Origin: Planctomycetota bacterium
GTDB taxonomy: Bacteria; Planctomycetota; SZUA-567; H5-PLA8
Length of the DNA stretch: 64,000 nucleotides
Assembly (NCBI GenBank): GCA_038227875.1
Contig: JBBRPR010000026.1
Coordinates: forward strand, 32,001 to 96,000
Direction: 5' to 3'
Part shown: piece after piece, positions 50,894 to 53,637 of the stretch
How the letters are laid out: every line of letters begins with the position of its first letter
Numbering within the stretch: the first letter of the stretch is position 1
Notes under the pieces: model-generated
Seen by the model: the letters and a program-made list of their open reading frames with translations, nothing else
Told to the model about the DNA's origin: nothing
Database searches by the model: none
Translations under genes and position numbers: made by a program

Positions 50894-51008
50894 CGGTTTC
50901 TCCGGACAGTACAATCCGACATAAAGTCGATATTCGCCACTATGGAATTAATACTGAGAATAGCGCATAGTGTCTCCCGAAGACAACCTTCATTCAGGAG
51001 AAAACAGC

Positions 51009-51848
51009 ATGTCCAGTTCAGTTGCAGAATACGACACTAAAACAGCCGTGGTGAGTAACGAGGACCGTTTCCTGTTCGACCTGCAGGGATTCATTCTGCT
51101 GCGCGGTGTACTCTCGCCGGAAGAATGCCGGAACTATCTGGGTGTAATCGAAGAACTCGAGAACCTTCCGCACGACGACAAAGCGCGGCGCGAGAAGCTC
51201 AACCCGACCGGTCGTCCCAGCCAGCCCACGCTCGAAAACAATACGCACTCCAAGCGTTTGAACGGATTGCTGCGCCTCAATTCCGCGTTCGATGCGCTGA
51301 TCGCACATCCCGGGGTTGCGCCGTATCTTGAAGCCTTCATGGGGCAACCGCAACTGGTCAACACGTGGTCGATCTCGAAATTCAAAGGCCAGGACAGTGG
51401 CGGCTGGCATCGCGGCGTCTCGCCGATTCAGTACAGCTGCCGCGACGGCAATATACGCAGCGCGATGCTCAACACCGTCTGGTTCCTGACCGATAACGGT
51501 CCCGAGGACGGTTGCGTCGTCGCGCTTCCCGGCGGCCACAAGAGCAACCGCGATCTCGACTGGGGCAAGTATAAGGGCCTGGCCATGCCCGGCGCGCGCC
51601 CGATCACCGGCCAGCCCGGCGACGTCTTTCTCTTCTCCGAAACCGTGCTCCACAACGGCCTGCCCAAAACCACGCCCGGCCGCCGCACGAATCTCTACTA
51701 CAACTATACCACGCGCGATTTCAACGTGATGACCTTCTCGCCCGAGCATAACTTCCACTTCTGCATGCCGCCCTCGGTCCGCGCTCGATTCACACCCAAG
51801 CAACTCGAATACACCGAGTGGATGCAGTACATGCAAGCAACGGAATAG
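51009..51848 (+). CDS. PhyH-family Fe(II)/2-oxoglutarate-dependent enzyme with HxG motif
   Basis: FDLQGFILLRGVLS, WHRG, LTDNGPEDG, PGGHK, GDVFLF...LHNG, distal Arg; AGGAG RBS. Confidence 0.88.
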   Translation: MSSSVAEYDTKTAVVSNEDRFLFDLQGFILLRGVLSPEECRNYLGVIEELENLPHDDKARREKLNPTGRPSQPTLENNTHSKRLNGLLRLNSAFDALIAHPGVAPYLEAFMGQPQLVNTWSISKFKGQDSGGWHRGVSPIQYSCRDGNIRSAMLNTVWFLTDNGPEDGCVVALPGGHKSNRDLDWGKYKGLAMPGARPITGQPGDVFLFSETVLHNGLPKTTPGRRTNLYYNYTTRDFNVMTFSPEHNFHFCMPPSVRARFTPKQLEYTEWMQYMQATE

Positions 51849-51885
51849 TAACGATGAACGATGATTAATGAACGTTGGATAAAAA

Positions 51886-51912
51886 TTCGGAACGCGAAAT
51901 TTGCGTTCCGAA
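51886..51912 (+). terminator. Hairpin, probable terminator of the PhyH gene
   Basis: TTCGGAACGC-GAAATTT-GCGTTCCGAA followed by GTTT. Confidence 0.55.
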
Positions 51913-51963
51913 GTTTCATGTGGTCAAATGGTGGCTGTAGTTTTTCACAGGGCGACGTGCTTT

Positions 51964-52135
51964 CATGGAGGACAAGATTATGCGTGCTTTCTGCGCTCCC
52001 AACCACGTCCTCCATGTTCGCGCCTGAATCCTTCTTACTCTCACCAGCTAAGAATGGCCTGATCGCTCTTGTGAGCGGAGCGCGGCGTGGGGTCACATCC
52101 ACATCCGCGGCGCATGCCGCAAGGAGCGCAGTGTC
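51964..52135 (+). promoter_or_regulatory. Putative ribosome-dependent attenuator leader of the rbfA-like/rtcB operon
   Basis: CATGGAGGAC (51964-73) pairs with GTCCTCCATG (52007-16); CTGCGCTCC (51991-99) pairs with the downstream RBS GGAGCGCAG (52123-31) or with GGAGCGCGG (52077-85). Confidence 0.55.
51980..52027 (+). CDS. Putative 15-aa leader peptide MRAFCAPNHVLHVRA
   Basis: GGAGG RBS, ATG 51980, TGA 52025-52027; below the ORF-track size cut-off. Confidence 0.55.
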   Translation: MRAFCAPNHVLHVRA

Positions 52136-52495
52136 ATGTCGTATGACAAAGAAGAAAAGCGCGGCCAACGAGGCCATCGGGCTCAGCGCATCGAACGCAC
52201 CGTTGCCGACGTGTTGGAATATGAAATCCTGCCAGCGCTGGAAAACCCGGCGTTGGAAGAACTGCATGTGTTGCGCGTCGAGGCTTCCAACAACCTCGCG
52301 AGCCTGCAGATCGCAATCGTACCCAAACGCAAGGAAGTTCCGCAACCTCCCGAAGAAATCCAGGCGGCGCTGACCTCAGCAGAAGGCTTCGTCCGCTCGG
52401 AACTCGCCGGAATCCTGCGCATCAAGCGCATGCCGGTGATCCGGCTGCGCTACATTCCGCTGCCGCTATACGGGGCGGAAGGCGGTGGCGCATGA
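52136..52495 (+). CDS. Ribosome-binding factor A (RbfA)-like protein, divergent paralog
   Basis: HRAQRI..., NPAL..LHVLRVEAS.NL, AL..AEGFVRSELA..LRIKRMP.I pattern; AAGGAG RBS; lacks the canonical DPR motif and C-terminal helix. Confidence 0.8.
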   Translation: MSYDKEEKRGQRGHRAQRIERTVADVLEYEILPALENPALEELHVLRVEASNNLASLQIAIVPKRKEVPQPPEEIQAALTSAEGFVRSELAGILRIKRMPVIRLRYIPLPLYGAEGGGA

Positions 52496-53637
52496 AGCAG
52501 ATCTTCGCGCACCCACAGTTGGTGCCGTTAAAAATCTGGGCGGAGAAAGTCGATGCGGAGGCGCTCCAGCAGTTGCAGCGCCTCGCGCGTTCGGAGTTGC
52601 TCGCGGGGCCGGTGGCCGTCATGCCGGATGTTCACAGCGCCGGCGCCGTCTGCGTCGGCACGGTCCTCGCCACGGCGAACGTGGTACTGCCCACGGCCGT
52701 CGGGGAGGACCTCGGCTGTGGCATGGCCGTCGAACGGCTGCCGCTCGCCGCGAGCCATTTCTCGCGGGCGCAATTGGAATCGATCGTCGCAACTGTTCTT
52801 AAAGCAGTGCCCGTCGGCCGGCGCAGTCACGCCACACCGCGTGAATTTATCCAAGGCAGCGCGCTCAGCACCGGCGCGCTGCAACACGCCGCGGAGTACC
52901 TCGGTCCGCGCCAAGTCGGCACGCTCGGCGGCGGCAACCACTTCATCGAGTTGCAACGGGACGCACACGACCGGCTGTGGGTGACGGTGCATTCCGGTTC
53001 GCGCGGCGTCGGCGCGGCGATCGCGTCGCATCACGGTCGCGTGGCGGAAGCGAAGTCCGATCGCAAGCTGCCGTTTTTGCGACTCGGTACGTCAGAAGCT
53101 GACGCGTTCTGGCTCGACCTGGCGTGGGCGCTGGCGTTTGCCGAAGAAAACCGGCGTCGCATGCACGCGGCCGTGCGGCGCGTGCTCTCCGCACTGTGCA
53201 ATGAGCACGTGGAAGCCGCCGAACGCTTCGACGTCGCTCACAATCTGATCACGCGCGAAGTTCACGGCGGTCGGGAACTCGTGATTCACCGCAAAGGCGC
53301 CATGCCTGCCGCGGCCGGCGCGCGCGGCATCATTCCCGGCTCGATGGGTACTATCAGCTATATCGTGGAAGGACTCGGCAGCGACGCATCGTATCACTCG
53401 TGTTCGCACGGCGCAGGGCGAGCTCTCCCGCGCGTCGAGGCCCGGCAGCGCATCTCGCCGGCCCAGTTGCGCCGCGAACTTCGCGCCGTCGTGATCCCCG
53501 CCGATCCGCGCCTCGTACGCACGCTCGTTGAGGAAGCGCCCTCGGCCTACAAGCCGCTCAAACGCGTGTTGGCAGAGCAGGCCGACCTGGTCCGGCCGAT
53601 GCTGCGATTGGAACCGTTGGCGGTGATTAAAGGATGA
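52492..53637 (+). CDS. rtcB: RtcB-family RNA 2',3'-cyclic phosphate/5'-OH ligase
   Basis: MPDVH, DLGCG, GTLGGGNHFIE, HSGSRG, HN, HRKGA, PGSMG, SCSHGAGR, EEAPSAYK; ATGA overlap with the upstream gene. Confidence 0.95.
   Translation: MKQIFAHPQLVPLKIWAEKVDAEALQQLQRLARSELLAGPVAVMPDVHSAGAVCVGTVLATANVVLPTAVGEDLGCGMAVERLPLAASHFSRAQLESIVATVLKAVPVGRRSHATPREFIQGSALSTGALQHAAEYLGPRQVGTLGGGNHFIELQRDAHDRLWVTVHSGSRGVGAAIASHHGRVAEAKSDRKLPFLRLGTSEADAFWLDLAWALAFAEENRRRMHAAVRRVLSALCNEHVEAAERFDVAHNLITREVHGGRELVIHRKGAMPAAAGARGIIPGSMGTISYIVEGLGSDASYHSCSHGAGRALPRVEARQRISPAQLRRELRAVVIPADPRLVRTLVEEAPSAYKPLKRVLAEQADLVRPMLRLEPLAVIKG

Follow-up and report, generated by a model that had tools for sequence, protein, structure and literature searches.

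In the translational attenuators of erm and cat genes, as in the ermC leader, a short leader ORF precedes a main ribosome-binding site (RBS) that is held in a helix, and alternative pairings are set by the ribosome. Leader attenuators of the trp type distinguish three states, the ON state requiring a ribosome that is held within the leader. RNA ligase genes can also be placed under a protein regulator, as in E. coli and Salmonella, where the sigma-54 activator RtcR controls rtcBA. To our knowledge, the sensing of ribosome damage in bacteria has been described in few cases, namely RtcR and the proposed PA5471.1 attenuator. In the parts of PMC12057347 devoted to this system, ArmZ is an RtcB-like ligase and PA5471.1 is a leader peptide that relieves transcription attenuation upon ribosome stalling. 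The same parts agree with the original prediction for the locus studied here, which had cited the P. aeruginosa operon PA5471(armZ)-PA5470, induced by ribosome inhibitors through a short leader peptide, as its precedent. According to the passages on this enzyme in PMC9304027, the related ligase RtcB2 is a repair enzyme for 16S rRNA cleaved between A1493 and G1494, within the decoding centre.

Here we describe a conserved 15-codon leader ORF, together with its RNA pairings, ahead of an RbfA-like gene and an RtcB-family gene in a 64,000-nucleotide stretch of Planctomycetota DNA, referred to in full as the window. Among titles and abstracts no RbfA-like/RtcB operon or leader was found, although the RtcB-neighbourhood catalogue of Burroughs & Aravind 2016 may list an RbfA-like neighbour, and a search on rtcB leader-peptide attenuation yielded only the MexXY review as relevant. 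A term search of PMC6514570 gave no occurrence of 'RbfA', and the RtcB passages that it brought up cover PrfH-RtcB only.

The RbfA-like/RtcB gene pair and its leader ORF

The two genes downstream of the leader had been named as rbfA-like and rtcB, an assignment that the Pfam and NCBIfam models bear out. The RbfA-like protein reaches 35.0 bits against the Pfam family RBFA (PF02033; cut-off 34.7), or 34.2 bits in a six-frame search, and 32.3 bits against TIGR00082, which is under the cut-off of 51.15. In addition, a profile of five RbfA-like homologues matches solved RbfA structures (E = 2e-6), and a canonical rbfA is encoded elsewhere in the genome (95 bits). Judged from its sequence, the product of the first gene is a divergent RbfA paralogue.

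The RtcB start codon overlaps the stop codon of the RbfA-like gene (ATGA), and an ATGA or GTGA overlap is present in six other close loci that were checked, including a metagenome contig (L014), as well as in one distant locus (L055). The NCBIfam models nearest to the window RtcB are those of the PrfH-linked RtcB2 type. Its score against TIGR03073 is 170.2 bits, below the cut-off of 271.8, whereas the true RtcB2 of the genome, to which it is 35% identical, scores 449.3 bits. This true rtcB2 forms an operon with prfH on contig C3 (L037, 851-2667, minus strand; 449 bits on TIGR03073 and 231 bits on TIGR03072), and the genome also holds two long RtcB paralogues. Because canonical rbfA, the long RtcB paralogues and rtcB2-prfH are all located elsewhere, the pair in the window represents an additional module. 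No RtcR-type regulator is encoded by the Pfam-scanned flanking ORFs; an AraC-family gene located further upstream is unrelated. Separately, we note that in one relative (G010; L004, 1489-2139) the RbfA-like frame is open for 216 codons and runs past the RtcB start, unlike at the other loci, which may reflect an assembly frameshift or a real extension.

The short ORF that the original prediction had placed ahead of these genes is present in full, with its GGAGG, ATG, 15 codons and TGA all where they had been described (Table 1). Of the crude gene starts in this genome, just 4.8% are preceded by GGAGG. When 61 related genomes were searched at the protein level for the RbfA-like gene, RtcB was found directly behind it in six, the window's genome counted, two further matches being canonical rbfA; within the window's family, five of the 16 other genomes carry the pair. 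The window and five homologous loci provide six leaders for comparison, of which about five are independent. When these upstream regions are aligned, an ORF of exactly 15 codons with a strong Shine-Dalgarno (SD) sequence is found at the same place in all five homologous RbfA-like/RtcB operons, some 100-130 nt ahead of the RbfA-like start. In all six leaders the strong SD lies 6-7 nt upstream of the start codon, while the start codons themselves (ATG, GTG or TTG) and the stop codons (TGA, TAA or TAG) differ. The homologous peptides read MRPIRASKKLLHVCL, MRALRAPSPFLHVRA, MRAADAPAFIRHARA and MRASSAPSPFLHVRG, of which the final one is shared by two loci. Codons 4, 5, 8, 9 and 15 are variable, and the conserved codons are those that reside in helices; thus, selection appears, from these alignments, to act on the leader RNA and the reading frame rather than on the peptide.

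A scan of genome contigs for more homologous leaders returned only the four already-known loci, and a scan of metagenomes returned two loci, one identical to that of G001 and one lacking upstream DNA, and hence no independent leader. The leader motif occurs once in the genome, and positions 51000-53000 gave no match at E<=1 to any of 4227 Rfam covariance models. A 170-aa ORF (51861-52373) overlapping the leader was rejected as spurious, given that it has no Pfam match and carries indels among relatives.

All six leaders share, by eye, a TTGCnn element, a 17-nt spacer ending in GG and then TAnnTT (TCAAAT in the window), which would place the start of transcription near 51936. The proposed promoter comes from this by-eye comparison, a sigma-70 consensus scan having listed no promoter. 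The 3' arm of the terminator-like hairpin behind the upstream gene overlaps the proposed -35 box, and on the minus strand, too, the hairpin is terminator-like. Terminator-like sites on the plus strand end at 51912, with none in 52028-52135, between the ORF and the main gene, so that control would act on initiation.

Table 1. Features of the leader and of the genes that follow it, in window coordinates
Feature	Position	Strand	Remark
Terminator-like hairpin	51886..51912	+	After upstream PhyH-family gene (gene end 51848)
Putative -35 box TTGCGT	51901..51906	+	By-eye comparison
Putative -10 box TCAAAT	51924..51929	+	By-eye comparison
Segment A, CATGGAGGAC	51964..51973	+	5' arm of own-SD stem; holds leader SD
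Leader SD GGAGG	51967-71	+	Within segment A; read from sequence
15-codon leader ORF MRAFCAPNHVLHVRA + TGA stop	51980..52027	+	ATG 51980, TGA 52025-27
Segment B	51982..51999	+	Two parts pair with main start region and main SD
Segment C, GTCCTCCATG	52007..52016	+	Codons 10-13; 3' arm of own-SD stem
Segment D, CATGTTCGCGCC	52013..52024	+	Codons 12-15; pairs with box X
Segment E, CGCTCTTGTG	52064..52073	+	Second, intergenic anti-SD
Box X, AGCGCGGCGTGG	52079..52090	+	Core GCGG(C/G)GTGG in 6/6 leaders
Hairpin P (GCGGC-GCAT-GCCGC)	52107..52120	+	Directly 5' of main SD
Segment F, main RBS	52121..52139	+	SD AAGGAGCG 52121-28, ATG 52136-38
RbfA-like paralogue, 119 aa	52136..52495	+	Pfam RBFA; profile versus structures
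RtcB-family RNA ligase, 381 aa	52492..53637	+	Pfam RtcB, E 1e-88

Pairings within the leader RNA and their conservation

Two stretches of the leader ORF, both in segment B, match the main RBS. GCGTG (51982-86) forms pairs with CATGT (52135-39), the main start region, and CTGCGCTCC (51991-99) is the exact reverse complement of GGAGCGCAG (52123-31), which lies 5 nt before the ATG at 52136. The latter match had been proposed as an anti-SD in codons 4-7; it holds to the nucleotide and recurs in the homologous leaders. Indeed, five of the six leaders carry a perfect main-SD complement of at least 8 nt within codons 4-8, and the sixth has a 9-bp match containing G.U, with a compensatory change from C-G to U-A. 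Among 1000 shuffled ORFs, 2.1% contain a perfect complement of at least 9 nt to the main RBS window.

The SD of the leader ORF itself pairs with codons 10-12 (A:C). The perfect 10-bp stem that had been proposed here, between 51964-73 and 52007-16, is likewise exact and recurs in the homologues. The duplex between the own-SD window and the ORF body is worth -19.1 kcal/mol, compared with -10.7 +/- 2.1 kcal/mol in 300 dinucleotide shuffles, none of which is as good. Recurrence in the homologous loci tests these features more strongly than shuffling does. Segment C carries CCUCC, the core of the 16S anti-SD, the 16S 3' end being taken from relatives. Further along the ORF, codons 12-14 pair with the invariant GCGGCGUGG box (box X), just 5' of which an SD-complementary pyrimidine run is found in all six leaders, at the position of segment E. 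The original prediction had pointed to a second possible partner, GGAGCGCGG at 52077-85, which is present in the window but does not recur, as the relatives read TTCGCGG, TTAGCGG, CCGCGCGG or CCGGGCGG.

In an RNAalifold consensus of the six leaders, the main SD is paired to codons 5-7 and the main AUG to codons 1-3 (B:F), and the consensus also holds D:X (codons 12-14 with GCGG(C/G)GUGG) and the GCGGC/GCCGC hairpin P. Across the six leaders, the duplex energies range from -9.7 to -18.5 kcal/mol for A:C, -18 to -32 for B:F, -14 to -20 for D:X and -16 to -25 for E:F. In the window, the whole 221-nt fold has a z of -2.39. In the consensus structure 95.2% of 168 cells pair, as against 29-50% with the partners slid, a control that flatters the consensus because the structure was derived from the same six sequences; three pairs are changed on both sides, a count that 19 of 500 shuffles reach. 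The D:X helix has 98% of its cells paired, with a register-shifting compensatory change in L004. In G001 the SD GGGAGCA is matched by the anti-SD UGCUUCC; in G010 codon 13 changes from GUC to GCC in step with a change from C to G in box X; and where the own-SD stem of the window has a C-G pair, three relatives have A-U and G010 has U-A. The covariation sought among homologous leaders is present as compensatory changes, but it is thin with six leaders.

Two further relationships were considered and rejected. Pairing of the leader SD with the second anti-SD, as an anti-anti-SD, is weak (-6.6 to -9.0 kcal/mol). Mimicry of 16S rRNA was judged against the 16S sequences of G006 and G014, the assembly of the window's genome holding no 16S: the leaders share with them only 9-12-mers (GGAGGAAC, which is SD-like, and GCGGCGTGG), in approximately the number expected by chance, and no antisense match of at least 10 nt was found.

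Models for the control of the operon

We see about an even chance that the leader, of approximately 200 nt, acts as a translational attenuator with a translated ORF of 15 codons at its centre, and the likeliest reading is that this mini-gene and its competing pairings let the operon be made only when ribosomes falter. The main RBS (F) would be closed by default through either of two alternative conserved partners, codons 1-7 (B) or the intergenic anti-SD (E). Codons 10-12 (C) would close the SD of the ORF itself (A), and codons 12-14 (D) would compete for box X, which otherwise would aid folding of the E-F domain. The resulting three-state logic would resemble the trp leader's, with initiation instead of termination as its target. 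In the untranslated leader (state 1), A:C, D:X and B:F would form and the operon would be OFF. When a ribosome reaches the stop codon (state 2), D would be covered or melted and the E-X-F domain would fold, again giving OFF. When a ribosome is held at about codons 3-8 (state 3), B and C would be covered while D:X persists and hinders E:F, such that F would keep just weak local pairing and the operon would be ON. Expression would then occur when ribosomes are slowed or damaged, which fits the likely job of the operon in 30S/16S rRNA repair.

Equilibrium folding without a ribosome leaves the main SD closed (its unpaired probability does not exceed 0.16 in any of the six leaders), and opening the main RBS costs 8.7-20.7 kcal/mol, as expected for sequestration in a helix. 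The leaders divide between two folds, one comprising the own-SD stem and E:F and the other D:X and the ORF:RBS pairing, and the main SD is closed in both. The leaders of G001 and G010 adopt the B:F/D:X fold, in which their leader SD is free in part; the minimum free energy fold of the window lacks B:F, and in it CGCUCUUGUG (52064-73) pairs with the main SD, enclosing roughly 70 nt as a hairpin domain. D:X is predicted as a co-transcriptional intermediate, once X emerges, in five of the six leaders (probability 0.52-0.97); it is not predicted in the window's own sequence, where the 10-bp A:C stem dominates.

According to the original prediction, a stalled ribosome would switch on the repair genes by masking the anti-SD. 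In silico such masking is insufficient. With a 27-nt footprint masked at each of the 15 codons in the six leaders, the unpaired probability of the main SD never exceeds 0.30 at any position, as segment E and a local UUCC keep it paired, and the opening cost stays at or above 8 kcal/mol. With D:X enforced and a ribosome at codon 5, the SD is still 80-97% paired via a local UUCC:GGAG contact. On average, the RBS costs 13.6 kcal/mol to open when no ribosome is present; a ribosome at codon 5 brings this to 11.7, or to 11.0 when D:X is enforced in addition, and a ribosome at the last codon brings it to 15.6. The cost is lower at codon 5 than at the last codon in all six leaders, and a ribosome held on the leader reduces it by 2-12 kcal/mol relative to a terminating one; in the proposed ON state it still amounts to 8.4-13.7 kcal/mol, as computed with ViennaRNA, which cannot score the pseudoknots that the three-state model invokes. 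Since equilibrium folding keeps the RBS closed, the ON state would have to be kinetic or need another input. We favour a kinetic state, for which a route by way of D:X is plausible, with the ribosome held over approximately codons 3-8, although the computations do not establish it. What had been predicted stands as regards the ORF and its anti-SD, which are genuine, but the switch appears more elaborate, with simple masking insufficient in silico.

The B:F pairing, by which codons 1-7 of the ORF hold both the main SD and the main start codon, would also suit plain positive translational coupling, in which the passage of a ribosome melts B:F and briefly exposes the main RBS, yielding low expression in proportion to translation, with no sensing of stalling or stress. 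The partly free leader SD of G001 and G010 in the B:F/D:X fold is compatible with such coupling. We nevertheless consider it unlikely, given that the conserved second anti-SD E, the self-sequestered leader SD and the peak in opening cost with the ribosome at the last codon are all left unexplained by it.

That the equilibrium modelling contains no ribosome-only ON state could instead reflect a factor acting in trans, which would open or lock the domain that runs from X through a hairpin, CCGCGGC and hairpin P to the SD, leaving the ORF an auxiliary role; the RbfA-like protein (by autoregulation), another RNA-binding protein, a small RNA or a ligand are the candidates. It is this domain, and not the ORF, that forms the most invariant stretch of the leader, and an 11-mer, CCACGTCCGCG, is encountered again in the rtcB2 leaders of two relatives. 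However, pairing with codons 12-14 accounts for the invariance of box X, no Rfam family is matched and the motif is found only once in the genome, and we regard control by such a factor as quite improbable.

RbfA has a role in cold adaptation, and with both SDs in helices an RNA thermosensor, whose SD-sequestering helices respond to temperature, would be in keeping with it. Yet in silico the main SD is paired from 5 to 55 C in all six leaders, and the shift between the two folds follows no consistent direction with temperature, making a thermosensor very improbable. Least probable of all is that the ORF encodes a functional micropeptide and that its complementarities are incidental, since, although the peptides end alike between leaders (MRA...LHVRA), each conserved codon falls in a predicted helix and the non-helical ones vary freely, R14C in G001 and V13A in G010 alter the peptide but keep the pairing, and distant operons retain the layout without the peptide sequence.

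Wider occurrence and relation to known systems

A profile from N-extended RbfA-like relatives, run against 401 sampled Planctomycetota genomes, locates the N-terminally extended paralogue (motif ELGPDDGIDPR) in 47 of them, and RtcB lies directly behind it in 15 of 30 fetched loci (L046-L075). Within 500 nt upstream, an SD-led ORF of 15-28 codons is present in 12 of these 15 distant RbfA-like/RtcB operons, compared with SD-led short ORFs in five of the 15 fetched loci without RtcB and at 530 of 7177 crude control genes (7.4%), a control drawn from the window's genome only and set against loci that are interrelated. In nine of the 12 distant ORFs the 3' half complements the ORF's own SD and spacer better than at least 90% of shuffles do, and these complements are not the same from locus to locus but co-vary. 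Just two of the 12 have a significant complement to the main RBS; the start codons of those main genes are uncertain.

Short ORFs are likewise found ahead of the rtcB2-prfH operons. In the region upstream of that of the window's genome (L037, 2668-2870), an SD-led ORF of 17 codons (MTHLTNLGDLKSGAALA) lies at a distance of about 190 nt, and the rtcB2 operons of three relatives (L041-L043) have SD-led ORFs of 19-20 codons at the same place. In G006 and G012, the 11-mer mentioned above forms segment D of the RbfA-like leader (window positions 52010-52022 compared). It is also found in the rtcB2 leaders of both genomes (L042, L043), where it lies outside the short ORF and is followed by a partner, GCGCGCCGTG, and it may represent a shared RNA module or binding site. 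In another genome (G403; L021), an ORF of 12 codons led by AAAGGAGG (MSADSPLHQDRA) precedes the RbfA-like gene at about -95 to -56; there is no RtcB within 1.5 kb of this gene, and the ending of the ORF resembles the LHVRA ending of the window's.

The leader is a compact, conserved and fully cis-encoded candidate sensor of ribosome damage. Its operon points to a new partner for RtcB of the ribosome-repair type, a paralogue of the 30S maturation factor RbfA, and hints that the ligase may be brought to damaged small subunits in a second way, other than through PrfH; the paralogue family is widespread among the Planctomycetota genomes sampled. It is conceivable, though we hold the proposal only tentatively, that Planctomycetota carry an undescribed 30S-repair module, in which an RbfA-like targeting factor and an RtcB2-related ligase are gated by a three-state sensor of ribosome pace with a self-sequestered super-strong SD, and that leader ORFs acting in cis constitute a general, RtcR-independent route to RtcB-type repair. 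The short ORFs before the family's rtcB2-prfH operons and PA5471.1 point the same way, towards a general sensing of damage by leader ORFs.

As in the RtcR system, an RtcB ligase would, on the model proposed here, be induced when the translation apparatus is damaged, the regulator in the window being a candidate cis-acting leader instead of a protein activator of transcription. With the RtcB2-PrfH module, in so far as the sources describe it, the window shares a compact RtcB co-transcribed with a ribosome-binding partner, which in the window, to judge by its sequence, is RbfA-like. As in the trp leader, the model is OFF when untranslated, OFF when freely translated and ON with a ribosome held, but its output would be access to the RBS rather than a terminator, and the ORF has no run of regulatory codons. 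The overall arrangement is similar to, but distinct from, that of the erm/cat attenuators: shared are an SD-led leader ORF, here conserved with its own SD as a predicted ORF in all six leaders, a main RBS in a helix and, in the proposed model, alternative pairings by ribosome position, whereas in the window the leader's own SD is also sequestered, two redundant anti-SDs are present, the leader is not known to have a drug-dependent arrest motif and the genes under control encode factors for RNA repair and for the ribosome. PA5471.1/armZ-prfH of Pseudomonas aeruginosa, as far as its published description extends, likewise has a short leader ORF before an RtcB-family gene tied to ribosome rescue. 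In operons of that type the RtcB-like gene is followed by prfH, whereas in the window RtcB follows the RbfA-like gene and prfH belongs to the other operon, on contig C3. Moreover, the mechanism put forward for PA5471.1 is attenuation of transcription through terminators, whereas the window leader has no terminator-like site and its ORF pairs with the main SD and start codon; owing to this, and to its proposed action on the RBS, the window leader would be a translational variant of the PA5471.1/armZ leader.
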